Below, piece after piece: positions 2,793 to 26,869 of a stretch of DNA of 64,000 nucleotides; positions within the stretch are counted from its first letter, which is position 1, and each line of letters starts with the position of its first letter. The translations under genes were made by a program, and so were the position numbers. The notes under the pieces are model-generated. The model was given only the letters and a program-made list of their open reading frames with translations, ran no database searches and had not been told where the DNA came from. This stretch comes from Coraliomargaritaceae bacterium (lineage in GTDB: Bacteria > Verrucomicrobiota > Verrucomicrobiia > Opitutales > Coraliomargaritaceae): NCBI GenBank assembly GCA_965656495.1, contig CBFHKU010000004.1, positions 32,001-96,000 of the forward strand, written 5' to 3'.

Positions 2793-2797
2793 AGGGA

Positions 2798-4177: not shown

Positions 4178-4283
4178 TGGTGACAGCAGTATTAATCCTT
4201 CAATTTAGAGAAAATCAAAAGGTTCGTAAATGGTAAGCTTTGATGCTGTAATACAAATCACCGAAACTCAATGCCCGCCTCCA

Positions 4284-5987: not shown

Positions 5988-6014
5988 TATTTGTTTCAGG
6001 GATTCGTATTTTAA

Positions 6015-7463
6015 TCAATCGGCGTAAATCTTTTGGACGAGTTTTCCGGTATCGAGGAAATGCTTGTAGGGCATGCGGTCATAACTGCGGATTTCCGCCG
6101 CCACTTTGGGGTCGGCGCGATCGGGCCAGGGATTCTTTTTGAGGATTGCCATGATTTCGGCATGCGCAGCGCGTTCCTCTTCGGTTTTCGCATCGCCCAC
6201 CAAAGTGTAGCGCGAGCGGCGGTAATCCCCGTTGGTGCGATAGAGACGTCCCTCGCCTGAACCGTAAACCGGATCGACTGCCTCCAACATCCAGTCCTTG
6301 GTACGCGCCATGCGGGCAGTTGCGATGTAACTCATAATCCATTCACGGTGTGTCGCTTTCGCCCCGCTCAAAAAAGGACGGAGGCTTTTACCGTCAAGGG
6401 CGTGACCACTTGGTAATCGCACACCGGCGTAATCAATTAGAGTTGGGAAAATATCGGAGAACTCAACCAGCTCGCCACTGGAACCACGGGGCTTCACCAG
6501 CCCCGGCCCATCGATAATGAGCGGAACCCGCGGTCCGTCCTCGGTGGCGTGCATCTTCATCCCGTCTTTTGAATCACCGTTGTCCGCCGTAAAAATAACG
6601 ATGGTGTTGTCCCGCACCCCCGCGTCTTCGAGGGCGTCTACAAGGCGCCCCATTGTCGCATCAATATATCGAAACATATCCCCTAAACTGCCGCCTTTAT
6701 TTGTGCCGGGGCGACCGCGAAACGGCATGGTCGGCAATCCGCCACCCGCAATGTCGTGCACGAGGTTCAGCGGATAATACGCCAGGAAAGGCTGATCCCG
6801 TTCGCGCTTGATAAAATCGACGAGGTAATCGGTGAAAATGTCCGGCCCGAAATCTTCGGGACCGGTTTCCTTTAAGCGCCCGTTTTCAATGACACAGGGA
6901 TGCCAGTAGCGCGAGGGAATGCGCGGGGCGTTGGGAAAATTATACCGGCCCTCGTAAAGACCGCTAAAGACTTCGCCGGCGGGGATCGCGCTCGGATGAT
7001 CGGCGCGATGACAAAATTCATCGAAACCGACTGTGCCATCGACCTGCCCGCCCAGCGCCATATTGTTCCCAACCAAAACGGTACGGTAGCCGTTGTCGCG
7101 CAAGGCCTGGGCAAAGGTCAGGTGACGGGTGGTCCAGTTGTAGCGGTCGCTGCTTTTTTCATTGATGCGCAAGTCATTGTGCCAAACCCCGGTTCGGGAG
7201 GCATAGCGCCCGGTCGTCAGGAGGGCGCGCGAGGAGGAACACATCGGGGTTGCCCAGGCAGTCCGAAACATGACCCCGCTTTCCGCGAGCGCATCGATGT
7301 GTGGGGTCTCCGCCGCGCTGGCATCATAACAACTGAAATTGCGGGGACTGAGATCATCGACCACCACGATTAAAAAATTGGGGCGGCTTTCCGTGGCACC
7401 GACCGGCGCGAGACACCACAAAACCGCAACGATAAGGGCATGGAATACGAGATTTGATTTCAT
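6015..7463 (-). CDS. Sulfatase (arylsulfatase A-like)
   Basis: RPNFLIVVVDDL, CSSSRALLTTG, FTADNG; ATG at 7463 chosen over TTG 7475. Confidence 0.88.
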   Translation of the reverse strand: MKSNLVFHALIVAVLWCLAPVGATESRPNFLIVVVDDLSPRNFSCYDASAAETPHIDALAESGVMFRTAWATPMCSSSRALLTTGRYASRTGVWHNDLRINEKSSDRYNWTTRHLTFAQALRDNGYRTVLVGNNMALGGQVDGTVGFDEFCHRADHPSAIPAGEVFSGLYEGRYNFPNAPRIPSRYWHPCVIENGRLKETGPEDFGPDIFTDYLVDFIKRERDQPFLAYYPLNLVHDIAGGGLPTMPFRGRPGTNKGGSLGDMFRYIDATMGRLVDALEDAGVRDNTIVIFTADNGDSKDGMKMHATEDGPRVPLIIDGPGLVKPRGSSGELVEFSDIFPTLIDYAGVRLPSGHALDGKSLRPFLSGAKATHREWIMSYIATARMARTKDWMLEAVDPVYGSGEGRLYRTNGDYRRSRYTLVGDAKTEEERAAHAEIMAILKKNPWPDRADPKVAAEIRSYDRMPYKHFLDTGKLVQKIYAD

Positions 7464-7478
7464 GATTGGGAACAAGGG

Positions 7479-8663
7479 TTAGTGCTGTGTTTGGCTTGAG
7501 AAATAATCCAAGGCGGCGCGGTTCGCCTCCATGACGGCTTCCTGCAGAACGGGATATGCCGAGCCGTCCTCGCGCAGCATCCCCTGCTTCAAAACACCCT
7601 GGTGTTCATTGAAGCGGTCGATATACTGACAGCGATGATAGCCGATGATGTAGGGCCTGGCACTCGCCTCCGCCAAATAATTGCGATACATCGTCGCGAC
7701 TGCTTGCTCGCTCTCTAGTTGCTTCCACATCGTCTTGTCATACTGCGGCGTCGCGAAACTGCATTGATGATCACAAATGAGGATCGGTTTTCCGTATTTC
7801 GCATAGAGCGCATCAAAATATTCTGCCTCAAAACGATCACTGCCGGGCTGAATCGAAAGCACGTCAATATACGGCAAGGCCGCCTCGACCACCACCTCGG
7901 GGTGATCACCCAAAAGATAACGCTCACCAAAAATCAAAACGCCGGGATGCAGACTGCGGGTCGCCTCCCCGATCAATTTATAATGTGCCTGCGCAATGAG
8001 CGCGAGGAATCCCTCGTCCGTGGCAGCTTTGCCCTCGCTCGCACAGTCATCGAGATATTGCTCGTAGCGGATGCGACCCGGTGCATTGGCGGGCAGTTCG
8101 CGAATCGCAATTACCCAATTCGTGCCCCGGGTTCGCAGGGAACGCTCCAAGTCCCACTGCGGGGTGTCCGTCCAATAATACCCGATCAGATTGGGATTGC
8201 CGGGATTGCGGCACATCCAGCGCAGTTGCTTCAACTTCTCCGCCTGCACCTTTGGATCAAAGACATCGGGGTAAAAGAATTCCGCATCGGGAAGGAAATT
8301 GGAATTCCGCTCAAGAAAGGAATCCTCCATGTAGGGCATGCGGGGGTAAATTTCCTGCGGCGAACCATAACCGGCGGTGTTGTAATGCCAGCCTTCCAAG
8401 TCTTCAGCCGCGGCTTCTGAATAACGCGACCAGTCACCCCCGTATGCTTCCGCGAAAATATCGGGCTCGGCAGCTTCCTGCACCGCATTGATGTGATTGA
8501 TCCCCAGCGTGAAAAAGGGCTCGCCCTCCGGATCCAGCAAAACGTGGCGCGCGCCTATTTTGTCCAATCGAAAACGGCCCTCCGCGGCAGAATCGGCCGG
8601 GGCGGATGCATTCGCGGATATGATAGCAGCAGTCATGATGGTATTGAATGATTTGGTTTTCAT
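7479..8663 (-). CDS. Agarase-like (GH50-related, clan GH-A barrel) glycoside hydrolase
   Basis: GRFRLDK...LLDPEGEPFFTLGINH, YPDVFDP, PNLIGYY, KPILI, PYIIGYH patterns resemble GH50-like proteins; catalytic positions atypical. Confidence 0.6.
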   Translation of the reverse strand: MKTKSFNTIMTAAIISANASAPADSAAEGRFRLDKIGARHVLLDPEGEPFFTLGINHINAVQEAAEPDIFAEAYGGDWSRYSEAAAEDLEGWHYNTAGYGSPQEIYPRMPYMEDSFLERNSNFLPDAEFFYPDVFDPKVQAEKLKQLRWMCRNPGNPNLIGYYWTDTPQWDLERSLRTRGTNWVIAIRELPANAPGRIRYEQYLDDCASEGKAATDEGFLALIAQAHYKLIGEATRSLHPGVLIFGERYLLGDHPEVVVEAALPYIDVLSIQPGSDRFEAEYFDALYAKYGKPILICDHQCSFATPQYDKTMWKQLESEQAVATMYRNYLAEASARPYIIGYHRCQYIDRFNEHQGVLKQGMLREDGSAYPVLQEAVMEANRAALDYFSSQTQH

Positions 8664-9997
8664 TTAAGACGCGCGGTATCGTGTTGCCGAAGTAGCGTTT
8701 CCATTTTCAGGCGCACTGCCGCAAGCTCGGCTCCGCATTCGGTCGCAGCGAGCGGCTTTTCTTCCAGCTCATCCTGAGCGAGGTCGTAAAAATCGCCATT
8801 CCGGTAAAGTTTGTAGCGCTCATTACGCGCAAAGGATACATCCACAACCCCGGGATATCGCCGCTTCATAAAGTTGGGAATTTCATACCAACAATAGATA
8901 AACTCGCGGGGCGCGCCCGCCTTGCCCTCCAACTGCGGCAAGAAGCTCTGTCCGTTGAATCGTTCCATCCCAACAGGTTTAACCCCCGCAAGCTCGCAGA
9001 AGGTCGGAAGGAAATCGCTGAAATCCACAAGGTCGGCGCTCACCGCGCCCTGCACCACCCCAGGACCGGCAACCACTAGTGGTACGTGCGTGCCGGCATT
9101 GGTGGTCTCGCCCTTCCCGCCGCGCACCTTGCGTCCCTTGATTTCCGAGACGGTATTGCCCAGGCTACCGTTGTCGGATGTGAAGAAAATATAAGTCTGC
9201 TCACTCAAACCCGCCGCCGCGACCTGCGCCATCACGCGACCCACCATTTTGTCCGTATATCGCACCATATCGTCAAAATACTCGGGATCCATGCTCCCGC
9301 GTTTCGCGCCGGGGCTCTCGGGGTTCCAGTCCTCCGAGTCCGGATTCGGGACAAAAGGCGAGTGCGGCAAGAGCATGGGATAGTAAACCAGGAAGGGTTC
9401 GTCCTTGTGCGCCTCGATGAATTCCCCGATGAAATCGACGATCAAGTCCGGCCCAAATTCACCGTTGCGATAATCCAGCTCCACTCCGTTCCGTTCCAGT
9501 TGAGGATTCTCATACCGCGTATCGGTCCCGGTCGCATTGCTGAAGTTACTGCGCGTGTGCTGCCAAAGCAGGGACGACTCAAAACCAAAATGTTGCGGCG
9601 CATCACGCGTTTGCCCCAATTGCCATTTGCCCGCGATACAGGTGGCGTAGCCAGCATCCCGCAAAAGATGCGCAAAGGTGGTCTCCCCGCGTTTCAGCTG
9701 CGCAAATCGCGTGTAATTATAAACATTATAACGACCCGTCATGATCTGCACCCGCGAGGGCGTGCACGCCGGATTCGAATAACAATGCTCAAAACACAGC
9801 CCCCGCTCCGCCAAGCGGTCAATATTCGGAGTGGAATAGGATGTCCCCCCGTTGGCGCCAATACATTCATACCCCATATCATCCGCCATTATGAGGATGA
9901 TATTCGGAGGACGCTCAGCGCCAGCCGCGCCAGCCGCGATCAAAACGGCTCCTATGAAAAGAACCATCCGCATCAAAAATATCCAAATCTGTTTCAT
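8660..9997 (-). CDS. Sulfatase (arylsulfatase A-like)
   Basis: PPNIILIMADDMGY, CTPSRVQIMTG, AGKWQLG, TSDNG; start ATG 9997 overlaps the upstream stop (ATGA). Confidence 0.92.
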   Translation of the reverse strand: MKQIWIFLMRMVLFIGAVLIAAGAAGAERPPNIILIMADDMGYECIGANGGTSYSTPNIDRLAERGLCFEHCYSNPACTPSRVQIMTGRYNVYNYTRFAQLKRGETTFAHLLRDAGYATCIAGKWQLGQTRDAPQHFGFESSLLWQHTRSNFSNATGTDTRYENPQLERNGVELDYRNGEFGPDLIVDFIGEFIEAHKDEPFLVYYPMLLPHSPFVPNPDSEDWNPESPGAKRGSMDPEYFDDMVRYTDKMVGRVMAQVAAAGLSEQTYIFFTSDNGSLGNTVSEIKGRKVRGGKGETTNAGTHVPLVVAGPGVVQGAVSADLVDFSDFLPTFCELAGVKPVGMERFNGQSFLPQLEGKAGAPREFIYCWYEIPNFMKRRYPGVVDVSFARNERYKLYRNGDFYDLAQDELEEKPLAATECGAELAAVRLKMETLLRQHDTARLK

Positions 9998-12000
9998 TCG
10001 TAGTGTAGCGCGACCGCGCAGTGACAGGAAAATTGAGGAATCACAACCGAACCGCAGTCCCCCTCCCACGTAATCGGGAGATCAATTCCGTCCGGAACGA
10101 GCCTCGCGTGCGTGATCTTTTCGGGCAAATCAAACCGCAGCGGCACCTCGTGGAGCGGCGGCATGTCTTCAATGATTTCACAATTCCCACGCCGCATCGG
10201 CGGAGCGTAAAGCAAATGCGCGACATAACGCCCCTCCCCCGCTTGATGCAGAAAGGTTAGACGCCCCGCGCTCGGGAGCTTTGCTGCTACCATTGGACGC
10301 CTTCGCAAGCGCTGCAAAACATTGTAGAACAAGTCGCGGTGCAGTCGCGCTCCGTGCTTGAGATACATCCAGTCCAATTCCGGAACAATCGTGATTATAT
10401 TTCCCTTGCGAATGATCGCGGGATGCTCGGCCGGTTCCAACCGATGCGGAGTGTTCTGATGCGAGCAATAATGCTCTGCAGTACGGCTGAAAAAAGGCTC
10501 GTGAAGCTGCGCCAAAACTTCTGCATCTGCATGCGCTTTAAAACGCCGCGCCGGTTTATAATTCAAGAACGGGCTAGCCACCAGACCCTCCGCCAAAGTA
10601 CCCTCCACTGAGAGGTAATCCCGGTCGTAGTTCGCCTCACCTAAATAATCCGCACCGATATCGAGCAAGACCTTGCCTTCCGCATCCAGCGCCCCGCTCC
10701 CCAATACCAGCAAATTGCCCCCCGCCTTCGCAAAGGCGTTCAGGCGGTCGGCCGTCGCCGCATCGAGGCAAGCCGCGCCGGGAATCAGAATGCATTCGTA
10801 TGCACGCAGGTCTTTCGAAAAATTCGCGACCTCGAAGTTGATCTGTTTATCGAGCAGCATTTTGGCAAGGCCCTCGTCATGCGCGGCGCTGAAGCTGCGC
10901 CAAAAACCCAATCGCGCGACCGGTTGCCCACCGATCCCGTAAGCCTCGATTTCCTTAACATAGGCATAGGCTTCCCCGATGTTACGATACGTCGCTGAAT
11001 CCATTTTCCCACTTGGATGCAACTGGTCGCCAAAATTACAAGCGGCACCCCAGGCGATCATCGAGGCGGCCTCATAACGCAAGGCCTCGGGGTGCTTGAA
11101 GCCGCCAAACTCCCCCCACGCGGTGTGGAATTTGCCACTCATCGCGGTTATGCCATAGCCAGCCTGCAGGAAGTATTTCGATTGCAGCGGCAATTTATCA
11201 TACCCGCCCCAAACCGTGGGCAAGTCTTCCAAATCCTGCACGGTGTTGCTTCCAAACATCCGGTGCCGAAAATTCGCGCCGCTCTCAATCGCTGTGGTTC
11301 CGTTAAAGAAAACCTGCGCGGTGGGATGATACCGCGAAATCAATTCCCGCAGTGCCTTGCAATGCCCTTGCATCGTATCGGCAGTGAACCCTTCAACCGC
11401 AGACGCATCCTCGAAATCAATGCCTGCCGCTATCATATCGCGGCGACAGGATTCGCAAAAACAATGCCGCTCCACCTGATAAATATCGAACCAGAAGCCA
11501 TCGCTGACATAGCGTTCACAGAGTTCCTCAACCTGCGCCATAATGTGCTCGTGATAAGCGGTGTTGGCGCAGAGAAACTTCCAGTAAAAATCCGGCAGCG
11601 GATCCTCCGCCTTGGCGTCCCCGGAACGGCTTCCGCTCGTGACATACTGGCCCTCCCGGTCGCGCACGCACCATTCGGGGTGCGCCTCCGCGTCATTCGC
11701 AGACCATCCAAAGGTGTAATAGATCTGGGTCCTGACCCCGATCTCACGACAGGCTTCCAGTTGCGCACCCAGCAAATCAAAATCGAGGTTCGGGTGCATC
11801 CGCCCCACTTTGGTTGGATAGTAGCTCCAACTGTGATGACATTTCGCAAATAGATTGATCGAATCAATATGCCCCACGCGCAGGGCCGCTTGAAAATCCT
11901 CTTTCTTAAATCCCCTCCCAATCTCCATCAAATGCTCGGAGGTGTGAAAATCCAAATGCACTTGGCGGCGACCGGGAGGATATTTTGAAGGGGTTTGCAT
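9994..12000 (-). CDS. GH151-like alpha-L-fucosidase with beta-galactosidase trimerisation domain
   Basis: RQVHLDFHTSE, FAKCHHSWSYYPT, DGFWFDI, LEDLPTVWGGY, MSGKFHTAWGEFGG, GDQLHP; no signal peptide; start ATG 12000. Confidence 0.75.
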   Translation of the reverse strand: MQTPSKYPPGRRQVHLDFHTSEHLMEIGRGFKKEDFQAALRVGHIDSINLFAKCHHSWSYYPTKVGRMHPNLDFDLLGAQLEACREIGVRTQIYYTFGWSANDAEAHPEWCVRDREGQYVTSGSRSGDAKAEDPLPDFYWKFLCANTAYHEHIMAQVEELCERYVSDGFWFDIYQVERHCFCESCRRDMIAAGIDFEDASAVEGFTADTMQGHCKALRELISRYHPTAQVFFNGTTAIESGANFRHRMFGSNTVQDLEDLPTVWGGYDKLPLQSKYFLQAGYGITAMSGKFHTAWGEFGGFKHPEALRYEAASMIAWGAACNFGDQLHPSGKMDSATYRNIGEAYAYVKEIEAYGIGGQPVARLGFWRSFSAAHDEGLAKMLLDKQINFEVANFSKDLRAYECILIPGAACLDAATADRLNAFAKAGGNLLVLGSGALDAEGKVLLDIGADYLGEANYDRDYLSVEGTLAEGLVASPFLNYKPARRFKAHADAEVLAQLHEPFFSRTAEHYCSHQNTPHRLEPAEHPAIIRKGNIITIVPELDWMYLKHGARLHRDLFYNVLQRLRRRPMVAAKLPSAGRLTFLHQAGEGRYVAHLLYAPPMRRGNCEIIEDMPPLHEVPLRFDLPEKITHARLVPDGIDLPITWEGDCGSVVIPQFSCHCAVALHYE

Positions 12001-12070
12001 CAATAATGAATATCGCTGAAGCAGATGTAACTCTAAAATATAAGCCAATCAATCTGCCAAAACAAGCGAC

Positions 12071-16711: not shown

Positions 16712-18850
16712 CTAAGCGCTGCAACTCGCGACCGTCTCCTCGGCAGCTGCCGGAGCGCCGGATTTCATCGCTGCCGAATCCATCCATAGAATATTGGTCA
16801 CGATGCGCGGATAGTAAAGACTGCCGATCGGTTTGCCCGATGCAAATTGATCGGAACAGGCCTGAAACTTGGATCCATTGATCTCCCAATAGACGTGCGC
16901 CGCATCTGCCCGCGCTTCCTCTCCGTATTGAATGCCGAGGATTTCGCGAACTACATATTGATTCAGGCATATCTTACTCATCCAGGAATTGTCGGCGCTA
17001 CTGGAAAGTTTCCAGCCGCCATCCTCATACAAACAAACTCCCGGCTTCAATACGTAGCCGATGTGCTCCTTCAGCATTTGGATGTACGAGCCGAATTCGC
17101 CCTCCTCCGTAAGCAGATCCCCCAAACCCATCTTCCAGGGATAGATCAAGGCCTCCACCGCCGGAATGATGGCACTCTTGTTCTTTCCGTCCAAAACCGC
17201 CGGTATGAAACCATGCTGCGTGTCAAATGATGCTGTGAGGGTCGAAGCACAACGAACCGCCGCCGCGTGCGCTTCCTTCGCGAGGCCCCTGTCTCCCAAT
17301 TCCGCAAACATCATTTCCAATGCCAGATAGGAAGCCCAGCATTTGCCACCGAGGTACACATTCCGGCGTGCCTGCCCCAGCGAATGATCCAAAGAATCGT
17401 AGGTCGTGATCTCACCCCCACCCTTAGTCCGCGAGCTTTCGAAACTCATCAAGCCGTCCCGTTGCGCCGGATCAGGGTGATCGCGGTTCAACAGACTTTG
17501 CAAACAACGTCCGAGCAAATCCTTGTGCTGCCGGAGGAAATCCGCATCCCCGGTCTGGTTGACATACAGGCCCGCGCATAAAACCCAGTTGGTTAACTGC
17601 TCGCAGGTCATATAAGAGAAACACTTGCGGTCGATCCCCACACACTCATAACAGGAATACTGCGCCGGACTAAAGTGATTCCCCACGCCCATGTCGTGCG
17701 TGAATGAAACCCCGCCCTCGAGCAAGCTCGCGGGATCTTCCGGCGCGAAGACCTGATCTTCGTATTGATAGCGATTGACGAATTGCTCCAGGACATTCCG
17801 CACCGTCCATGGATTCAGCTTCAACTCGAAAAAGATCATATCCACCGTCAAATCGAGGGTGTTCATCATTAAGTATTCGCCCTCGTTGATCACCCACAAA
17901 GGCTTCCCCGATTCGTCGATCAACCACTCGCTGGAGCCGTAGTAACTGCGGGTGGCATGCGCAATCAGGAATTGCTGCGATTCGCTCAAACCACTTGCCA
18001 GTAATTCCGCGTCGCGGTCTGCCGCCAGTTTCAAATACTTCGCCTCGTGCTCAAAGGCATAATCAAACACCTCGTGAATATTGGAAAAGTGGCGTGTGTA
18101 CCAATAACGGGCTTTCAAATTAAAAGTAGCCTGCCCCTCGATGAAGTAGCCCAGGACGATGCGTACTGTTTTCGAAGCACCGGGCTCGACCACAAAGGAA
18201 ATACCCGCCACTGGCCCCAGTGCGAAATTCGGGGTGCGCTGCTCACGCTCAAGGGCCTGCTCTACCCCAAACTCCACAAATTCCGAAACGCCCGCTGTAT
18301 CACTCGCAAAGCCCATGCGTTCACGCGTCACTGCTCCTTTGTACGACCCGTGCTGCGAAAGCGGCGACCAGGGAGTCGATCCCTCCAACGCGAAAAACCC
18401 TTCCCAGGATTCCTCGCTCTCATTGCGAAGCTCCAGTTCCAAAAAAGTGGCGGGCAAACTCGCAAATTTGAGTTCCTCCGCCTCGGAATGAGCCGGGTCC
18501 GGAATTTCGAAAAACGGCGTGCTCACTTTAAAACGTATCCCTTTCGCTTTAAACTGATCCGTCGCCCAATCGTAGCGGCGCTCAATCAAGGATTCATCCA
18601 GAATCGTCAGCCCTTTGTCGGCGGCTTCATCCGGTTTGCTATAGCGCTCCGCCTCGTTCGAAATCCCCTTGTAAAATGGCAGCGTCACCATTTGCCCCGA
18701 AGCGGTCCGATACCCGACAAAAACCGCACTGTCGGCGGGGCTGCCCCGCTCGAGTGCCATGCCACCCTCGGCGCCATGCATTCCAACGGTAAAGGAAGCG
18801 TGCGCTCCCATTGGTGAGTGCTGTGCGTGAAAGGAACTTGAGGGTAACAT
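16712..18850 (-). CDS. Beta-xylosidase, GH52 (cytoplasmic)
   Basis: FHAQHSPMGAHASFT, NEGEYLMMNTLDLTVD, EITTYDSLD, NSWMSKI, SLYYPR. Confidence 0.92.
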   Translation of the reverse strand: MLPSSSFHAQHSPMGAHASFTVGMHGAEGGMALERGSPADSAVFVGYRTASGQMVTLPFYKGISNEAERYSKPDEAADKGLTILDESLIERRYDWATDQFKAKGIRFKVSTPFFEIPDPAHSEAEELKFASLPATFLELELRNESEESWEGFFALEGSTPWSPLSQHGSYKGAVTRERMGFASDTAGVSEFVEFGVEQALEREQRTPNFALGPVAGISFVVEPGASKTVRIVLGYFIEGQATFNLKARYWYTRHFSNIHEVFDYAFEHEAKYLKLAADRDAELLASGLSESQQFLIAHATRSYYGSSEWLIDESGKPLWVINEGEYLMMNTLDLTVDMIFFELKLNPWTVRNVLEQFVNRYQYEDQVFAPEDPASLLEGGVSFTHDMGVGNHFSPAQYSCYECVGIDRKCFSYMTCEQLTNWVLCAGLYVNQTGDADFLRQHKDLLGRCLQSLLNRDHPDPAQRDGLMSFESSRTKGGGEITTYDSLDHSLGQARRNVYLGGKCWASYLALEMMFAELGDRGLAKEAHAAAVRCASTLTASFDTQHGFIPAVLDGKNKSAIIPAVEALIYPWKMGLGDLLTEEGEFGSYIQMLKEHIGYVLKPGVCLYEDGGWKLSSSADNSWMSKICLNQYVVREILGIQYGEEARADAAHVYWEINGSKFQACSDQFASGKPIGSLYYPRIVTNILWMDSAAMKSGAPAAAEETVASCSA

Positions 18851-18906
18851 AAGCTATTAAAATAAGCTCAACAAATTATCAAAATACAGCCCTTGAGCCA
18901 AGCACG

Positions 18907-18939
18907 ACAAATGAAGCCTATATTAAAACTAATGAAACC
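18907..18939 (-). promoter_or_regulatory. Candidate XylR/AraC operator upstream of the GH52-GPH operon
   Basis: ACAAATGAAGCC...ATGAAACC, 21-bp period, same architecture as 12071-12103. Confidence 0.6.
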
Positions 18940-19090
18940 ACCACATCCGCAGAAACCTTAAAAATGCACGCTTCCTGAGCACTCCCTACTCGCATAAGTT
19001 CAGGATTTTGAACTTACACAACCATATTCAGTTCATCTCCAATAACAAAAAATCATTGCTCAAAAACATTCTCTCACCTACATAAATCAT

Positions 19091-19303
19091 ATGCCATATT
19101 TCTTGACCATCATCGCTCTCATTTTCACGACCAGCCTCGCTCAGGCGCATTCCACTGGCGGGCATCACGAAGGCACTGCAGCCAACACCGTTCATTTCCT
19201 GACCGAGTTCAGCCATTTCGGCCCGGTATTATTAATTGCTGCCCTGCTTGTTATTGCCGGATTCGCCAGTCTGCGCTTCCGGAAATCGGAACGGTCCAAT
19301 TAA
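19091..19303 (+). CDS. Small His-containing membrane protein, HupE/UreJ N-terminus-like
   Basis: Signal peptide ending AQA-H, GGHHEG, H-x6-H (HFLTEFSH) before a TM helix, basic tail. Confidence 0.55.
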   Translation: MPYFLTIIALIFTTSLAQAHSTGGHHEGTAANTVHFLTEFSHFGPVLLIAALLVIAGFASLRFRKSERSN

Positions 19304-19360
19304 ACGCAATCCACGGATGGCGCGTATACTCATGGCCACCGTGATATTAGCGACACCCTC

Positions 19361-20212
19361 ATGAATCCTCTACTGATTCTGGGAGCGGCGGGGGCGGCAT
19401 GCCTCTATGCCACCGGTTCACTGCAAATCAAACGCGGCCTCAACAATGGTGCCAGCCTGCGGCGCACCGTTGCCACCACCAATGTTTTCATGGCGCTTTG
19501 GTCCCTGCCGCTTTTCTTTGTCGCGCGTGGCGATTTTGAGCTCGTCTCCTGGCTCACTGCCATGCTCGCCGGGGTCGCCCTTTTTCTGGGACGCATCCTC
19601 TCCGTCAAAGCCCTTGAAGTAGGTGACCTCTCGATCGTGGGCCCCCTCCTCGGTCTCAAAACCCTCCTCGTCGCGATTTTCTCCTTCGCCACCGGTCAGG
19701 CCGAACTCAACACCTGGCTCTGGACCGCCGCCATAACCGCCACCCTCGGCGTCATTCTCATTCAACGCGGTCCCCGCAAGCTCTCCACGAATCGACGCCA
19801 GGCCGCCGCCTACGCCGCCGGGGCAAGCATCCTTTTCGCAGGCTGTGATATCCTCGTCGTTGAAGCGCGTTCCCAACTCGGTATCGGCTGGCTCTCTCCG
19901 ACCCTTTTTATTACCCTTGCGCTCCTTGTTCCCTGCCTCGGTAAACTCACCCCGCCTGCCCCGGAGGCGCGCAAACCGATGTATCTCGGTTCCGTCATCA
20001 TGGGATTCCAAACGACCTTCGTTATCTTCCTCATCGGCCTCACCGGACAGGCCGTCATGATTAATATTATCTACGCTTCCCGCGCTATCTGGACCGTTGT
20101 TATTGACCGTTTCTATGGACGCGGCGAAGACGTTGCGGCCTTCTTCGTCTGGCGACTCCTCGGTGCCGCCCTGCTGGTCTTCTCGATTATACTGGTTATT
20201 TTTCTCCGCTAG
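19361..20212 (+). CDS. DMT/EamA-family membrane transporter
   Basis: ~10 hydrophobic helices in 283 aa; ALEVGDLSIVGPL EamA-type motif. Confidence 0.7.
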   Translation: MNPLLILGAAGAACLYATGSLQIKRGLNNGASLRRTVATTNVFMALWSLPLFFVARGDFELVSWLTAMLAGVALFLGRILSVKALEVGDLSIVGPLLGLKTLLVAIFSFATGQAELNTWLWTAAITATLGVILIQRGPRKLSTNRRQAAAYAAGASILFAGCDILVVEARSQLGIGWLSPTLFITLALLVPCLGKLTPPAPEARKPMYLGSVIMGFQTTFVIFLIGLTGQAVMINIIYASRAIWTVVIDRFYGRGEDVAAFFVWRLLGAALLVFSIILVIFLR

Positions 20213-21005
20213 ATAAAATTGCGCGGTTCAGCTTCCCTGAAACAAATCCCTCCGCATCGAATTCAACCTCGCGGAAACCCAAGCCCTGAATCGCCGCCGT
20301 CAATTTTTCCCGCTGCGTCTCTAATTGATCCAAGGCATCTGCCTCCACTTCCACCCGCGCGGTCTCGCCATAATGGCGCACGCGGTTGATGCGAAAACCC
20401 GCTTCAGTCAACAGCGCCTCCGCCGCCTCAATCTGACGCAATTTCTCAATCGTTATACGTTCACCATAGGGCACCCGTGAGGATAAACATGGACTCGCGG
20501 GCTTATCCCAGCAAACCAAATTAAAGTGTTCCGCCAGTGCCCGCACCCCCGCTTTGTCCACCCCGCAATCCACCAAAGGCGAGCGCACCTTAAATTCCTC
20601 CGCCGCCGCCAAGCCGGGCCGGTAATCCCCCGTATCATCCGTGTTGGTTCCGTTCAAAACCCACCAGTCCGGATAATCCCCCGCCAACCCAAGCATTTCA
20701 TCGTAAAGGGTGTGCTTGCAAAAATAACAACGGTTGGTCGGATTCTCGAAATAATTGGGGTTCTCCATTTCGGCAGTCGCAATCACCCGGAGCGGCAAAT
20801 CCATCCCGCCCGCAAAATTTTTTGCGGCTTCCAGATCCGACAATTTTAAACTCGGAGACGCCGAGATCACCGCAAGGACGCGCTCCTTTCCCAAAAAATG
20901 CCGCGCCAAATACGCTACCAGCGAACTGTCCACCCCACCGGAAAAAGCCACCAAGGCACCGGGACATTGCCCATACCAAGCCTTGAGTGCTTCCAGCGCT
21001 TTCAT
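20196..21005 (-). CDS. larE: Nickel-pincer cofactor sulfurtransferase LarE
   Basis: PP-loop AFSGGVDSS, NRCYFCK, GTNTDD.GDYRPG, WDKPASPCLSSRVPYG, SGKLN. Confidence 0.93.
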   Translation of the reverse strand: MKALEALKAWYGQCPGALVAFSGGVDSSLVAYLARHFLGKERVLAVISASPSLKLSDLEAAKNFAGGMDLPLRVIATAEMENPNYFENPTNRCYFCKHTLYDEMLGLAGDYPDWWVLNGTNTDDTGDYRPGLAAAEEFKVRSPLVDCGVDKAGVRALAEHFNLVCWDKPASPCLSSRVPYGERITIEKLRQIEAAEALLTEAGFRINRVRHYGETARVEVEADALDQLETQREKLTAAIQGLGFREVEFDAEGFVSGKLNRAILSSGEK

Positions 21006-21077
21006 GTTGTTTTGCTAAGACCCATTAACCAATCTGTCAACTTGCCCTCACCACCCTTTTAATTAAAAAGAACCCCT

Positions 21078-22301
21078 ATGCGTATTTTGCACTACCATTG
21101 CCCCGCCGGAATCAGCGGCGATATGAATCTCGCTGCAATGGTGGCGCTCGGCGTAGACCCCGCCGCCCTCGAAGCCGAACTGCGCAAACTCCCCTATACC
21201 GGTTGGTCGCTCCAATTCGAAACCACTCAACGCGGCGGCATCAGCGGCCTCAGCTGCAAGGTCATCCTCGATCACGATCACGACCACCAGCACAGTCACG
21301 ACTACGAATCCGGGCACTCCCATCACCGTACCTATCGCGAAATTCGCGAGGCCATCGAATCCAGCGCCCTCGCGGCGCCCATCCAAAAGGATGCCCTCGC
21401 CTGCTTTGGCGCCCTCGCGGAAGCGGAGGCGGCCGTGCATGGCATTGAACCGGAAGCGGTGCACTTCCATGAAGTCGGGGCCCTCGATTCCATTATCGAT
21501 ATCGTAGGTGCCGCCATCGCCTGGCATTTGCTCGGCATCGACCGCATTGCCTGCTCCACCCTCGAGGTCGGGGGAGGCACCGTAAAATGCGCCCACGGCG
21601 TCATGCCGGTCCCCGCGCCCGCCACCGCTCGACTCCTCGAAGGCGTCCCCTTCACATCCGGAGCCACCGACCAGGAATGCACCACCCCGACCGGTGCCAC
21701 CCTCCTCATCGGCAAAGCCTGCGCCTTCGGAACCCGCCTGCAAGGCACCCAAGTCAAAACCGCCATCGCGACCGGACACCGCGACGACCCCAATCTCCCC
21801 AACGCCCTCTACCTCTCCCTCTTTGAAACAGCCGGGGAAAGCCCCGCCCTCGAATCCACTGAAACGATCTGGGAACTCGCCGCCAACATCGATGACATGA
21901 CCGCAGAGGCCATCGCATTTCTCTGCGAGACGATCCTGGAGGCGGGCGCAGTGGATTGTTGGCAAAGCCCCGCCACCTTCAAAAAGGGCCGCCTCGGTTC
22001 CATTGTCCACGCCCTTGTCGCCGCCGAACAAATCCAATCGGTCGAAGCCTGCTTCTTTAAACATAGCCGGACCCTTGGCGTGCGCCGCAAACCCTGGGAA
22101 CGTTCCATCCTTCAACGCGAAATCCAATCCCTCGAAACCCCCTTCGGTTCGGTCCGCGTTAAAACCGCACAAGGTCCCGATGGTTCGACCCACCGGAAAA
22201 TCGAATACGAGGACTGCGCCCGTATCGCCCGCGAGCAAAAAGAATCCCTCGAATGGGTCCACGCCCAAATCGATCCCCTCCTTGACGAACCTCAATCCTA
22301 A
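21078..22301 (+). CDS. larC: Nickel insertase LarC
   Basis: GISGDM, His-rich DHDHDHQHSH..GHSHH, VHFHEVGALDSIIDIVG, CAHGVMPVPAPAT, TPTGA, NIDD, KKGR, EYEDC. Confidence 0.95.
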   Translation: MRILHYHCPAGISGDMNLAAMVALGVDPAALEAELRKLPYTGWSLQFETTQRGGISGLSCKVILDHDHDHQHSHDYESGHSHHRTYREIREAIESSALAAPIQKDALACFGALAEAEAAVHGIEPEAVHFHEVGALDSIIDIVGAAIAWHLLGIDRIACSTLEVGGGTVKCAHGVMPVPAPATARLLEGVPFTSGATDQECTTPTGATLLIGKACAFGTRLQGTQVKTAIATGHRDDPNLPNALYLSLFETAGESPALESTETIWELAANIDDMTAEAIAFLCETILEAGAVDCWQSPATFKKGRLGSIVHALVAAEQIQSVEACFFKHSRTLGVRRKPWERSILQREIQSLETPFGSVRVKTAQGPDGSTHRKIEYEDCARIAREQKESLEWVHAQIDPLLDEPQS

Positions 22302-22304
22302 GCC

Positions 22305-23036
22305 ATGAAAGCACGCGAAATCCTCGAACAAGTCCAACGCGGCGAACTCGACCTCGACGCCGCCCTCGCCGAATTGCAGGGCTTTGAAGATCTCGGCCAC
22401 AGCCGCGTCGACCTCGCCCGCGAGCAACGCAACGGGGCCCCCGAGGTGATCTACGGTGAAGGAAAAACCGCCGACCAAATCCGTGAAATCATGCAAAGCA
22501 TGGCAAAGCGGGAACAGAATACCCTCGTGACCCGCCTCGATCCCGCCAGCGCTGAGGCGCTGCGCCAAACCTTTCCGGATGCCAACTATTGCCCGCAGGC
22601 ACGAATCCTCACGCGCCTCCATTCCGCCCCGGCGCCCGCCGCTACAAAAATCGCCCTCGTCTGCGCCGGTACCTCCGACCTGCCCGTTGCCGAGGAAGCA
22701 CGCCTCACCGCCGAATTTTACGGCAACCCCGTTGAAACAATCTACGACGCCGGAGTCGCTGGTCTCCATCGCCTCCTTGCCAGCGTTGATACGATCCGGG
22801 CCTGCCGCGTCGTCATCGTGGTGGCGGGCATGGAAGGCGCCCTCCCCAGCGTGGTGGGCGGACTCGTGGATGCCCCCGTTATCGCAGTCCCCACCAGCGT
22901 CGGTTACGGCTCCAGTTTTGAAGGCCTCTCCGCCCTCCTCGGGATGCTCAATTCCTGCGCGAGCGGACTGAGCGTTGTCAATATCGACAACGGATTCGGC
23001 GCGGGCTTCCTCGCCAACCGTATCAATCGGCTTTAG
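22305..23036 (+). CDS. larB: NaAD carboxylase/hydrolase LarB
   Basis: PEVIYGEGKT, AGTSDLPVAEEA, DAGVAGLHRL, AGMEGALPSVVGGL, PTSVGYG, MLNSCASG, VVNIDNGFGA. Confidence 0.95.
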   Translation: MKAREILEQVQRGELDLDAALAELQGFEDLGHSRVDLAREQRNGAPEVIYGEGKTADQIREIMQSMAKREQNTLVTRLDPASAEALRQTFPDANYCPQARILTRLHSAPAPAATKIALVCAGTSDLPVAEEARLTAEFYGNPVETIYDAGVAGLHRLLASVDTIRACRVVIVVAGMEGALPSVVGGLVDAPVIAVPTSVGYGSSFEGLSALLGMLNSCASGLSVVNIDNGFGAGFLANRINRL

Positions 23037-24037
23037 GCATTGTGCTGCCTGCGGTGACAGCAGTCCGCCTCGTAGTGTTTCGCGCCGTGCTGCAGCGCAG
23101 CGTAGTCCGGTGAATCCGGCGCATCATTCACCGCAAAGCGCGCGCGTTCCTCGGCCTTGAAGGGTTGCGCCGCACAACCGGCTACCGCCTGATCGACGTA
23201 TTCTACCTTGTCTGCTCCGACCACGTGACAGCAGACCTGCGGATAACTCAAAGAATACTGCAAGACTTCCTGGGCATTGGTCGTTTCGTGCAGATGGGTG
23301 CGACGGCTCCCGCCAAATCCCTTCATGCCCAAGACCGCGATTTCATGCTTTTCACACAAGGGCATGATTTCGTTTTCAAAAGCGCGGGATTGCAAAGCAC
23401 CCACCACCGAGACCGGCATCAGCGTCGCGTCCCATTGATAACCCCCCTCAATAATATCGCGATGAACCTTGGGATCGGTGTGACCCGTAAACCCGGTGTA
23501 GCGAATCTTGCCCTGCTGCTTCGCCAACTCCAGCGCTTCGATCGCGCCCTCTTTGCGATAAGCATCATGGGCATCGTCCTTGCTCACATGATGCAGCATC
23601 CATAGATCCAAGTGATCCGTCTTCAGGCGGCGCAGGGAATCCTCCAGCATCCGCATTGCACCCGCCACATCCGGGGTGTAATGATCACTGTGGTAATTGC
23701 AAAATTTCGTCATCAGGAAGATCTCGTCCCGCCTCCCCTTCAACGCTTCACCCATGTATTCCTCAGCTTTCCCGCCATGGTAATCCCAGGCATTCTCAAA
23801 GAAATTCACCCCCAGATCCAGCGCGCGGTGCGCGATCGCATTGGCCTCTTTTTGCGAGCCCGCCATATACAGCGTGTGCCCTCCGAAACCCACCACCGTC
23901 AACATGTCGGCGTGGCGGCCAAATTTCCGCTTCGGAATCACCACCTTAGCGGCGGCTTCCGCCCAGGCCGTGCTGCTCTTTAAAGCCGCAGCCGATCCAA
24001 GTGAAAATTTGAGGAAGTTGCGACGTGAAAGACTCAT
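23033..24037 (-). CDS. Tat-exported aldo-keto reductase family protein
   Basis: SRRNFLK twin-arginine signal; GFGG, FFENAWDY, FLMTK, SLRRLKTDHLDLWMLH, GKIRYTGFTGH; stop overlaps the larB stop. Confidence 0.9.
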   Translation of the reverse strand: MSLSRRNFLKFSLGSAAALKSSTAWAEAAAKVVIPKRKFGRHADMLTVVGFGGHTLYMAGSQKEANAIAHRALDLGVNFFENAWDYHGGKAEEYMGEALKGRRDEIFLMTKFCNYHSDHYTPDVAGAMRMLEDSLRRLKTDHLDLWMLHHVSKDDAHDAYRKEGAIEALELAKQQGKIRYTGFTGHTDPKVHRDIIEGGYQWDATLMPVSVVGALQSRAFENEIMPLCEKHEIAVLGMKGFGGSRRTHLHETTNAQEVLQYSLSYPQVCCHVVGADKVEYVDQAVAGCAAQPFKAEERARFAVNDAPDSPDYAALQHGAKHYEADCCHRRQHNA

Positions 24038-24203
24038 GACTTTTGGGGTGTTGACTGAAATGCTGCGTGTTGCCGATATTAACAACTTGAGAATGTCCAA
24101 AACATAGCTTGGAACCATCCGATTTCAAGCATGGATGCTCCAAATACCCCATGTCTGGAATCCAAACCGACCGCGACCCCGGAAGCGCATCCGAGCCAAG
24201 CCT

Positions 24204-24875
24204 TTAAGGTTGCACGAAGACAAACAAAGTCTTTTCCCCGACTACCATACCCGAGGAATTCAACGCCCTGACCACCACTTTTTCCCGCATTCCCGCACCG
24301 TAAGCGACCGGTTCCACCATCAACACATACTGCCCCGACTTTTGTGAATCGGGCGCGGCCTTTACCTGCAAAACCTCCCCATTGAAGCCCAGCGCACCCA
24401 GCTTCACCGCATGATCGGGATGCAACTGTACCCGCACCTCCCGTGGCCCCACCGCCCCGCGCTTCCAATAAAGGATTTCCGGCTGCAACTGCATCGCCTC
24501 CACAATATTCACCGCTAATTTCAAATACGCCACCGGTTCCGGCATCCCCTCGAGAAAAACCCGCAGCACACTCTCATTCCGCCCCTGCCGTTTACCCTTC
24601 TCGAAAACCGCCGCCACAACCGTCGATTCCCCCGCAGCCAGCACCCGCTTCGCCGGCAAAGCAGCCGTGCAACCACAACTGCTCTCCACCCGATTAAACC
24701 GCAACTCCGCAGCGCCCGTGTTCCTGACGCGGTATTCCACCCGCACCTCCGCATCCCCCGGCCCCATTTCCACTTCCGTCTCAGTCCGTTCCCATTCCAA
24801 TTCCACTTCTGGCGCAGCCGATGCCAGACCCGCAAGAACTAGGACCATCAAAAGCATCCATCCATACCGCTTCAA
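24204..24875 (-). CDS. DUF1573 Ig-like domain protein
   Basis: RNTG..ELRFNRVESSCGCT signature; signal peptide. Confidence 0.8.
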   Translation of the reverse strand: MKRYGWMLLMVLVLAGLASAAPEVELEWERTETEVEMGPGDAEVRVEYRVRNTGAAELRFNRVESSCGCTAALPAKRVLAAGESTVVAAVFEKGKRQGRNESVLRVFLEGMPEPVAYLKLAVNIVEAMQLQPEILYWKRGAVGPREVRVQLHPDHAVKLGALGFNGEVLQVKAAPDSQKSGQYVLMVEPVAYGAGMREKVVVRALNSSGMVVGEKTLFVFVQP

Positions 24876-25312
24876 CGCTCCACCTCGCCTTCAATCCCCC
24901 GCTCACCATCCCAACAAATCAAAATCACCGCCCCCAGGAGCAACAGACCGTTCCGTACCAACAAAACCGCATAAGGCGCCATCAAACCCATCGATCCAAA
25001 ACATCCACAGTCAACCTCCAGACCCCGTAGCCACGCGCTCAGGTGCAGACCCATAAAGCACAACAAAAGCAGACCGATCACCCAGGCACTCCCCCGCCGC
25101 ACACCCGGAAACAAGAGACCCAGCCCCGCCCACAATTCCAGCCAGGGCAAACCCAACGCCACCCAGCGCGCCCAGTCCGCTCCCACCACCTGATAGGATT
25201 CCACCGCCGTTGCAAACGCCAGCGGATCGCGCAACTTCGATGCCGCCGCCCACACAAACGCCACCCCCAGCACCACCCGCAAAAGCAAGCCTATCCAAAA
25301 CCTCGGCTTCAT
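24872..25312 (-). CDS. MauE/DoxX-family membrane protein
   Basis: LRVVLGVAFVWAAASKL.DP..F, LPWLEL, DCGCFG; ATG overlaps the rhodanese stop. Confidence 0.85.
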   Translation of the reverse strand: MKPRFWIGLLLRVVLGVAFVWAAASKLRDPLAFATAVESYQVVGADWARWVALGLPWLELWAGLGLLFPGVRRGSAWVIGLLLLCFMGLHLSAWLRGLEVDCGCFGSMGLMAPYAVLLVRNGLLLLGAVILICWDGERGIEGEVER

Positions 25313-25740
25313 TCCTGCAAGGCCTCCCAGCCACCCTTCAACCAATAAACCTCCGCTCCCGTCACCGCTTCCCGCAAACGCATTGCCAATCGCTTACTCG
25401 ACCCACAGCCCGCCTCCGCGCAATACACCACCATCACCCTCGGTTCCTCCAGCCAAACCATCATCAATTCCATCACCCCCGTTCCCCAATTCGTTTCATT
25501 CAAATGAATCGCACCCGGTTCATGCCCCTCCGCATACTCAGCCGCAGTCCGCGCATCCACCCACAGCACCGCCTGCCCCCGCGCCGCCGACACTGAAATC
25601 TCCTCCTTGTCCACCCATTCACCCGCCGCCCACGGCACCGGTGACCAGCCCACTAAAACCGACAACACACTGCCCCCCAAAGTCAGTAGCAACAAGATCC
25701 AGCATTGGCGCACAATCAACATCCACCCAGCCTGAACCAT
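25309..25740 (-). CDS. Rhodanese-like domain protein, membrane anchored
   Basis: WVDAR..EY.EGH.PGA, VVYC....C..S, LKGGWE. Confidence 0.82.
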   Translation of the reverse strand: MVQAGWMLIVRQCWILLLLTLGGSVLSVLVGWSPVPWAAGEWVDKEEISVSAARGQAVLWVDARTAAEYAEGHEPGAIHLNETNWGTGVMELMMVWLEEPRVMVVYCAEAGCGSSKRLAMRLREAVTGAEVYWLKGGWEALQE

Positions 25741-25844
25741 TTAGCGCAAAAAACAAACCACGAATGAAACAAAAGAGGCGCACGTTGCAAGTTGTGGGTT
25801 GTTGGATCGGCACCGTGAAGGCTCAATGGACATCTTCTACTTTT

Positions 25845-26425
25845 CCGGCAGAGCCGGGAACCGCTTATCTTCGCTTATAAACACTAATATTTTTATCGTA
25901 TTGTTTTTAGCATTAGTGGATATAAGCGCCCATTAGCGGTCGCCAGCTAAGCTGGCCTCAGGGCAGATTGTAGGAAACTACGAATCACGCCGATCACGCG
26001 AATAAAGCATTGCCCGCGAAGGTACGCGAAGGGGAGCTGAAAGGTTAGGAAATGAAACCACGAACGACACGAAAAACACGAACCCGACTGAGCCGGGAAC
26101 CACTGATCTTCGCTTATAAACACCAATATTTTTATCGTATTGTTTTTAGCATTAGTGGATATAAGCACCCATTAGTGGTCGCCAGCTAAGCTGGCCTAAG
26201 GGCAGATTATAGGAAACTACGAATCACGCCGATCACGCGAATAAAGCATTGCCCGCGAAGAGGAGCAGGAAGGTTGGGAAATGGAACCACGAACGACACA
26301 AAAACCACGAACCCGGCAGAGCCGGGAACCGCTTATCTTTGCTTATAAACACTAATATTTTTGCTTTAAGGATAAGCGAAAATTAGCGCCCATTAGCGGT
26401 CGCCAGCTAAGCTGGCCTCAGTGCA
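25845..26425. repeat. Tandem array of ~230-240-bp hairpin-rich units (2 full + 1 partial)
   Basis: Units start near 25845, 26084 and 26313 (ccgRcWgagccgggaaccRct...); each has a long imperfect palindrome and a gccagc-taa-gctggc hairpin. Confidence 0.9.
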
Positions 26426-26438
26426 GCGCACCGGAAAA

Positions 26439-26701
26439 CGTCCGACATCGAACCCCGAACGCTGAAGCGATTTAGTGGTGGGAAGGTATGAAGGTGGAAA
26501 AGTGGGAATGTTTGAAATATGCTGCATCACCACTCCGTGTACTCGCTGCCTCTGTGGTGAGTTCGATGTTCAGCGTTCGATGCTCAATGTTCAAAGTTCC
26601 CTAACCTTCCAACCACTAAATCCCTTCAACGTTCAATGTTCGATGTTCAATGTTCAAAGTTCCCTAACCTTCCCACTTTCCCACCTTCCCACTTTCCCAC
26701 C
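26439..26701. repeat. Nested inverted repeats built from 7-mer (gttcRat) and 8-mer (ttcccacY) units
   Basis: 31-bp IR 26457-26487 / 26604-26634 (3 mismatches); ~36-bp direct repeat at 26575 and 26638; ttcccacY tandem at 26670-26700. Confidence 0.8.
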
Positions 26702-26869
26702 CCTAAAACGGCATCACTGGTACACATGCTATTGCTTGGCGCGTGGGTTACTTTGATGCTGTGCCCACGGGGTGAGTTGATTTTTTGAAAAAAGGACTGA
26801 GCGTTTTCTTGAGGAGTGTGAAAGCCTTGGATTGACGCGGGGGTGTTTTGGGCGTTTAACACCCTTTTA

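Follow-up and report, generated by a model that had tools for sequence, protein, structure and literature searches.

Aldo-keto reductases (AKRs) that carry a nickel-pincer nucleotide have been described by Semersky et al. (Nat Chem, June 2026; PMC13524815), who started from LarC, searched for larB/larE clusters without larA and counted 427 instances of AKRs as neighbours of such clusters. NphT of Alicyclobacillus cellulosilyticus (structure PDB 9YEB) binds the nickel-pincer mononucleotide covalently, with a mass gain of 450 Da, Lys200 as the tether and His144 as the nickel ligand. With NAD(P)(H) it shows no activity, and its reaction is the disproportionation of aldoses to a lactone and an alditol; 798 homologues bear its His/Lys motif, and its physiological substrate was left open (PMC13524815). 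With NphT came the first answer as to which enzymes employ the nickel-pincer cofactor where LarA is lacking. The locus considered here lies within a 64,000 nt stretch of DNA, referred to throughout as the window, from a Coraliomargaritaceae bacterium (GCA_965656495.1, contig CBFHKU010000004.1, positions 32,001 to 96,000 of the forward strand). Open reading frames (ORFs) and profile searches place five tightly packed genes in it: an EamA/DMT-family transporter gene, larE, larC, larB and the gene for an AKR of the NphT kind that bears a twin-arginine (Tat) signal peptide. It is likely that these five genes constitute a nickel-pincer module working as proposed below. Nickel-pincer use combined with export by the AKR itself is held with good, if marginally lower, confidence.

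The lar set is complete, as the first-pass annotation of this stretch had it. The larE gene (20196–21005, − strand) encodes the ATP-dependent sulfur insertase (TIGR00268, E 1.3e-85) and larB (22305–23036, +) the nicotinic acid adenine dinucleotide (NaAD) carboxylase/hydrolase (NF033503, E 2e-91; 305 bits, cut-off 175). Between them, larC (21078–22301, +) encodes a nickel-inserting cyclometallase with a His/Asp-rich stretch (PF01969, E 1.3e-125), in which LarC1 and LarC2 are fused, the product matching both models (TIGR00299, E 7.7e-55; NF052512, E 1.9e-37). The AKR gene (23033–24037, −; PF00248, E 2.9e-32) encodes 334 aa from an ATG at 24037. Its ORF extends as far as 24118 (23033–24118, −), and this ATG is the most likely start because homologues are mostly 330–340 aa long. 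The AKR and larB genes are convergent and their stop codons overlap (23033–23035 and 23034–23036), which agrees with the earlier description. Likewise, the 3′ ends of the transporter gene and larE overlap convergently by 17 bases. The range 19091–24037 annotated at first pass stands with respect to its lar and AKR genes; its first gene, the EamA/DMT transporter, had not been named. The LarE translation contains the PP-loop SGGVDS plus a CXXC-C cysteine set. LarE proteins with the CXXC-C set are described as [4Fe-4S]-dependent, catalytic and non-sacrificial, as in Thermotoga (PMC9283937), and by its cysteines the window LarE is predicted to be of this catalytic type, not of the sacrificial one. 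The NCBIfam model names the window LarE ‘sacrificial’ despite the CXXC-C set.

The fold of the fifth gene product is that of an AKR. An AlphaFold2 model (mean predicted local distance difference test, pLDDT, 80.6; predicted template modelling score, pTM, 0.81) has the TIM-barrel AKR fold, and the top Foldseek matches to it are all AKRs, the best being AKR11C1 (E 4.9e-19, TM 0.66/0.73); only canonical AKRs are returned because the PDB library used (entries to 2026-04-08) predates 9YEB. Among PDB sequences, the single window sequence matches AKR11C1 best (E 1.1e-22) and 9yeb_A second (E 1.7e-21). With a profile of 27 diverse members, 9yeb becomes the best PDB match (E 1.2e-38, chain residues 5–278), and a profile of 20 close relatives also gives an alignment to 9yeb that extends to the tethering Lys. 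The single-sequence alignment ends before this position, and the Lys is aligned by the two profile searches. The 9yeb chain numbering equals the numbering of the paper +3, as derived from the alignment; the paper's numbering is used here.

His186 of the window AKR (codon 23480–23482, −), within GFTGH (GITGH in 9yeb), corresponds to His144 of NphT, which coordinates the nickel, and Lys239 (codon 23321–23323, −), within LGMKGFGG (LGMK versus MTIK in 9yeb), corresponds to the cofactor-tethering Lys200. Further positions align as well: T184-G-H186 aligns with T142-G-H144, M238-K239 with I199-K200, G274 with G248, and G52/G53 with A20/A21, which make backbone contacts to the cofactor. Additionally, Y86, K111 and H149 align with the catalytic Y52, K75 and H106, and E81 with D47, a tetrad member and cofactor contact. 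Conservation was assessed by aligning the window protein with homologues from 78 fetched loci in MAFFT (79 sequences, 38–94 % identity, from Verrucomicrobiota, Planctomycetota, Acidobacteriota and other phyla); the clade itself is large, with at least 576 related stretches among species-representative genomes. H186, K239, Y86, K111 and H149 are each present in 79/79 sequences, G274 in 78 and T184 in 77. The Glu at the usual tetrad Asp (FFENAWDY), noted at first pass, is indeed present in the sequence, yet it does not serve as a hallmark; position 81 is Asp in 63 of the 79 sequences and Glu in 16, so that Glu is the minority state.

The nicotinamide carboxamide is held in ordinary AKRs by two residues, Ser and Asn, that follow strand 5. 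A full-length ordinary AKR of the same genome, which covers Pfam positions 2–290, has GISNY where the window AKR has GFTGH, and the PF00248 match of the window AKR covers profile positions 3–198 of 291; neither the Ser-Asn pair nor the full-length C-terminal cofactor part of ordinary AKRs is found in it. Between the aligned blocks after K239, following strand 7, there are 21 residues in the window AKR and 45 in AKR11C1. Judged from these alignments, the window AKR has a shortened version of the part in which ordinary AKRs bind the AMP half of NAD(P). A divergent C-terminal NADP-binding region had been proposed earlier from the segment VVGADKVEYVDQA; this segment is an ordinary β8-α8 element that aligns to AKR11C1, and it is the linker after K239 that is shortened. 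The window AKR is a probable nickel-pincer-nucleotide-dependent hydride transferase.

The association with lar genes points the same way. Among 17 loci with at least 63 % identity, the gene order AKR-larB-larC-larE is kept in 12; in two others larB lies where the contig ends, in one the contig breaks off within the AKR gene, and in two (L010 and L015) no lar gene lies within 10 kb. Among the distant loci, L062 and L075 likewise have larBCE within 10 kb. LarC is encoded in 48 of the 50 genomes that hold the Tat-AKR clade; in one of the 48 (G030) the match amounts to a fragment of 26 residues where a contig ends. The order of the window was sampled evenly with 151 genomes, 33 of which have LarC. 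Scores of the AKR profile exceed 500 bits in nine of the 151, all nine with LarC, and lie between 140 and 252 bits in 15, nine of them with LarC; of the remaining 127 genomes, without an AKR-clade match, 15 have LarC. These co-occurrence figures are to be read as counts and not as probabilities, because related genomes are not independent; the AKR-LarC association does recur in several phyla. At first pass, co-occurrence of the AKR clade with larBCE had been proposed as a check; LarC does co-occur with the clade, and the cluster is kept in relatives.

No larA gene is present in the 64 kb of the window, and the absence noted there extends to the genome (2.06 Mb, 31 contigs, 99.36 % complete), in which, 8000 bases apart, neither PF09861 (Lar_N) nor NF033504 (Ni_dep_LarA) has a match. 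Ornithine cyclodeaminase, a known client of the adenine-dinucleotide form of the cofactor (NPAD), has nothing above cut-off in the same genome. LarA is also absent from 12/12 AKR-holding genomes of the Opitutales type (G001–G010, G012 and G028) and from 3/3 further AKR-holding genomes (G084, G112 and G155), all 15 of which have LarC. Across the 50 genomes that hold the AKR clade, LarA-like matches occur in 30.

The AKR begins with a predicted twin-arginine signal peptide (residues 1–26; 23960–24037, −) comprising SRRNFLK, the hydrophobic stretch FSLGSAAAL and A-W-A before the likely cleavage site; it has no lipobox cysteine. The Tat consensus is given as S/T-R-R-x-F-L-K (PMC3383694). The Pfam TAT_signal model matches with E 1.1e-4 and 22.4 bits, slightly below its cut-off of 22.7. 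An N-terminal RR-x-[FL]-[LIVM] motif is present in 71 of the 78 homologues, some of the seven misses being cut or mis-started ORFs, and the genome encodes TatC (161 bits). The twin-arginine signal recognized at first pass is therefore upheld, and since it is conserved the AKR probably acts in the periplasm.

On this basis the following mechanism is proposed. In the cytoplasm, LarB, LarE of the [4Fe-4S] type and LarC would convert NaAD into the nickel-pincer mononucleotide. There the cofactor would be attached to the AKR as in NphT, a thioamide joining it to Lys239 and His186 coordinating the nickel. The Tat pathway carries folded, cofactor-bearing proteins, and by this route the folded, loaded AKR would be exported. 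Since the periplasm lacks a pool of NAD(P)H, the cofactor tethered to the AKR would act as a built-in hydride carrier. The reaction would be a redox-neutral shuttling of hydride between carbonyl and alcohol, most likely the disproportionation or transhydrogenation of aldoses to a lactone and an alditol, with proton transfers performed by the conserved AKR acid/base set of Tyr86, Lys111, His149 and Glu81. Finally, the co-distributed EamA/DMT carrier would probably move substrate or product across the inner membrane.

Much of this had been anticipated in the first-pass annotation, which suggested that an AKR exported by Tat with a nickel-pincer nucleotide already bound uses it in place of NAD(P)H; the motif, the co-occurrence with LarC and the absence of LarA are all consistent with that idea. 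Its guess at sugar disproportionation corresponds to the chemistry demonstrated for NphT (PMC13524815). What does not stand is the description as a new enzyme system: the mechanism is in essence the finding of PMC13524815, and the family was in print by June 2026 with the 427 co-occurrences and 798 homologues cited above. The main text of that paper contains no mention of twin-arginine, Tat, periplasm, export, secret-, extracellular or Verrucomicrob-, and the six of its 12 supplementary files that were searched, which did not include the list of 798 homologues, contain no Verrucomicrobiota genus name. A literature search on twin-arginine or periplasmic AKRs and on NphT or the nickel pincer returned no paper on exported nickel-pincer AKRs.

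Several observations weigh against nickel-pincer use by the exported AKR, or narrow the evidence for it. One set comes from weaker Tat-AKR relatives, of which 17 regions were taken from 14 of the 15 order genomes scoring 140–252 bits (G125, a partial match, was left out). All 17 have the His and the Lys at the motif columns and 14 have the RR motif. However, seven of them (L080–L085 and L094) come from six genomes without LarC (G182, G095, G101, G187, G147 and G120), which are 91–97 % complete and in none of which LarB scores above cut-off. The His/Lys motif and a Tat signal are therefore not proof of nickel-pincer use, since both are found in genomes without LarC and LarB; either the motif is no invariable sign of a nickel-pincer enzyme, or these proteins employ something different. 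The two genomes of the 50 without LarC differ in this respect, G018 having LarB and G014 having neither. Additionally, no nickel importer of the NicO/NiCoT, CbiM or HupE/UreJ families is found in the source genome, ABC-type systems not having been examined, and the LarA search covered the genome except for 8000 bases. With respect to NphT, Glu81 keeps the carboxylate of Asp47 on a longer side chain, and the NphT contacts W218/Y219 fall in an insertion that has no counterpart in the profile of the Tat-AKR clade. Structural evidence is limited by the loop 241–249, directly after K239, which has pLDDT below 50 in the model. The case for the orthologous group of the window AKR is one of co-occurrence and adjacency together with the motif.

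The lar-less relatives also lend themselves to a different explanation, in which the Tat-exported AKR holds a tightly bound NAD(P)(H) and the lar genes serve another client, for example a cytoplasmic NphT-like AKR. Precedents for such an exported enzyme are glucose-fructose oxidoreductase (GFOR) and aldose-aldose oxidoreductase (AAOR), described as Tat-exported enzymes of redox-neutral sugar conversion (PMC4628093). A candidate for the other client is also at hand: contig 2 of the source genome encodes a second, signal-less AKR of 404 aa (L099:1423–2637, +), whose best PDB match is 9yeb (E 3.3e-17), and which keeps the nickel His (GFSTH) and has Ser at the position of the tethering Lys. This AKR could be another client of the nickel pincer, one that binds it non-covalently. 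It occurs in 20 of the 151 order genomes, 14 of these with LarC, and in G155 it directly adjoins the DMT-lar-AKR cluster. Yet the Tat-AKR orthologue tracks LarC more tightly than this second AKR does (9/9 and 48/50, compared with 14/20), and it is the Tat-AKR whose gene is physically joined to larB. The shortened region for the AMP half of NAD(P), and GFTGH in place of the GISNY-type motif of the genome's ordinary AKR, argue further against a bound nicotinamide cofactor. We regard this explanation as unlikely, while still the strongest of the competing ones.

Two other possibilities accept the nickel-pincer cofactor and differ in a single element. That the AKR stays in the cytoplasm or at the membrane, its RR stretch being non-functional or an anchor only, might be argued from a TAT_signal score of 22.4 bits against a cut-off of 22.7, from an export predicted on sequence, and from NphT, for which no signal is described and whose main-text account is silent on Tat, periplasm, export and secretion. 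The exact fit to S-R-R-x-F-L-K, with a hydrophobic stretch and A-x-A behind it, the recurrence of the RR motif in 71/78 homologues across phyla and the presence of TatC make a cytoplasmic or anchored enzyme improbable. Alternatively, the AKR could bind a different Lar product, NPAD or the non-covalent mononucleotide, both of which have been raised for AKR homologues (PMC13524815). This is the least probable departure from the proposed mechanism, and we give it very little weight: the tethering Lys is invariant (79/79), LarB scores as a standard equivalog, and the short linker on the cofactor side argues against room for an AMP moiety. An AKR with the covalently tethered mononucleotide, exported by Tat, thus remains the preferred reading of the window protein.

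The transporter gene lies at 19361–20212 (+) and encodes an EamA/DMT-family membrane protein of 283 aa (PF00892, E 4e-07), which in the protein Atlas matches only uncharacterised EamA clusters of Verrucomicrobiota. A DMT homologue adjoins the AKR or lar genes in 26 of the 78 loci; 15 of these 26 have no lar gene nearby. DMT orthologues above 280 bits are found in exactly the same nine of the 151 order genomes as the AKR orthologue, and in the complete chromosome of G194 the DMT gene adjoins larC with the AKR approximately 1 Mb away. The DMT carrier is a probable fifth member of the nickel-pincer module and is probably a carrier of substrate or product. A role as nickel importer was considered and set aside, as the protein is without any histidine and resembles only uncharacterised EamA carriers.

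Past its AKR core the window protein has a C-terminal extension (residues ~300–334; 23036–23140, −), which ends in the His/Cys-rich tail noted at first pass (HYEADCCHRRQHNA), with a Cys-Cys pair. Its last 16 residues (319–334) have pLDDT below 50 in the model, and the C-terminal 120 residues alone match nothing meaningful among PDB sequences (best E 0.19). Among the tails of the 78 homologues, the Cys pair near the C-terminus recurs in most members from Verrucomicrobiota, the phylum in which the extension is rich in Cys and His. Upstream of the AKR on the same strand, after a gap of ~165 bases, are genes for DUF1573, MauE/DoxX and membrane-anchored rhodanese proteins (24204–25740, −). Only in L001 and L003, the closest relatives, does this trio adjoin the AKR, MauE and rhodanese doing so also in L016, and a link between the trio and the Cys-Cys tail is only a guess. 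No ORF of at least 80 aa is present in 19091–19360, and no credible riboswitch or other RNA element was found in 18500–26800, the sole match having E 0.54.

Further left of the cluster are a glycoside hydrolase family 52 (GH52) enzyme, a GPH symporter and a XylR-like regulator. The window also contains, at 19–12048 (−), genes for five sulfatases, a GH10 xylanase and a GHL6/fucosidase-like hydrolase, and this run, followed by the XylR-like regulator, GPH symporter and GH52, looks like a utilization locus for sulfated polysaccharides. The first-pass annotation drew the substrates of the AKR from this xylan/fucan locus; the tie is weak. GH52 is near the cluster in three of the 78 related loci, the xylan/fucan genes adjoin it only in the closest relatives, and in ten distant loci (Pfam scan of 100 ORFs) the genes around the AKR are, apart from the DMT carrier, unrelated housekeeping genes. 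In two of these ten, a tandem second AKR of ~330 aa precedes the Tat-AKR (L055:8932–9918, Pirellulales; L065:8976–9971, Acidobacteriaceae), with a Pfam match that likewise ends near profile position 194.

A broader reading may be put forward tentatively. In marine Opitutales that lack LarA, the whole nickel-pincer pathway may be kept solely to arm the Tat-exported AKR as a periplasmic hydride shuttle, with the DMT carrier as an obligatory fifth component that moves substrate or product, or conceivably the cofactor or a precursor of it. We consider this a serious possibility that falls somewhat short of an even chance. If it is true, redox chemistry outside the cytoplasm would provide a physiological rationale for the nickel-pincer cofactor, and a widespread class of periplasmic enzymes would extend across Verrucomicrobiota, Planctomycetota and Acidobacteriota. 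The Tat-AKR clade offers a testable reason for the use of a nickel pincer over NAD(P)H, since an AKR sent to a compartment without a nicotinamide pool must bring its own hydride carrier. The clade spans several phyla that are common in sea water, lakes and soil; given its size and the number of phyla, it would add a nickel demand and a periplasmic redox step on sugars or aldehydes to many polysaccharide-degrading bacteria. The existence of His/Lys subfamilies without lar genes also cautions that counting nickel-pincer AKRs by their motif may overestimate their number.

Compared with described systems, the window AKR stands closest in sequence motif to NphT. Both are AKR TIM barrels with the nickel His, the tether Lys, T-G-H and the tetrad Tyr/Lys/His, both have a shortened cofactor side, and both genes adjoin larB/larC/larE in a locus without larA. 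Identity between the two is approximately 25–30 %, as estimated by eye from the alignments. Unlike NphT, for which no signal is described, the window AKR has a conserved Tat signal. It differs further in having Glu instead of Asp47, in lacking the loop that holds W218/Y219, in its C-terminal extension of ~35 residues with a Cys/His tail, in its co-distribution with an EamA/DMT transporter and in its host, a member of the Verrucomicrobiota and not a thermophilic Firmicute. What the window adds to NphT is, as predicted from sequence, a Tat-exported and probably periplasmic form with a co-distributed transporter.

The LarA superfamily (PF09861) is, like the NphT kind, a client of the LarB/LarE/LarC cofactor, with a Lys tether and a His on the nickel (PMC13524815). 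Its fold is unrelated to that of AKRs, profile searches find no Lar_N/LarA fold in the window AKR, and LarA racemises or epimerises 2-hydroxy acids intramolecularly. AKR11C1 of Bacillus halodurans (PDB 1ynp/1ynq) has the same barrel and tetrad as the window AKR; it is a canonical NADPH-dependent AKR, which differs in binding NADPH, in its longer linker after strand 7 and in having no export signal described. The closest functional analogy for an exported AKR is provided by GFOR of Zymomonas mobilis and AAOR of Caulobacter crescentus. Their NADP is reportedly non-dissociable. Both are described as Tat-exported enzymes that have their own hydride carrier in the periplasm, a bound nicotinamide cofactor, and convert sugars to a lactone and an alditol with no net redox change (PMC4628093). 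They differ from the window AKR in belonging to the Rossmann-fold Gfo/Idh/MocA family and in using NADP as the carrier, with no nickel and no lar genes.

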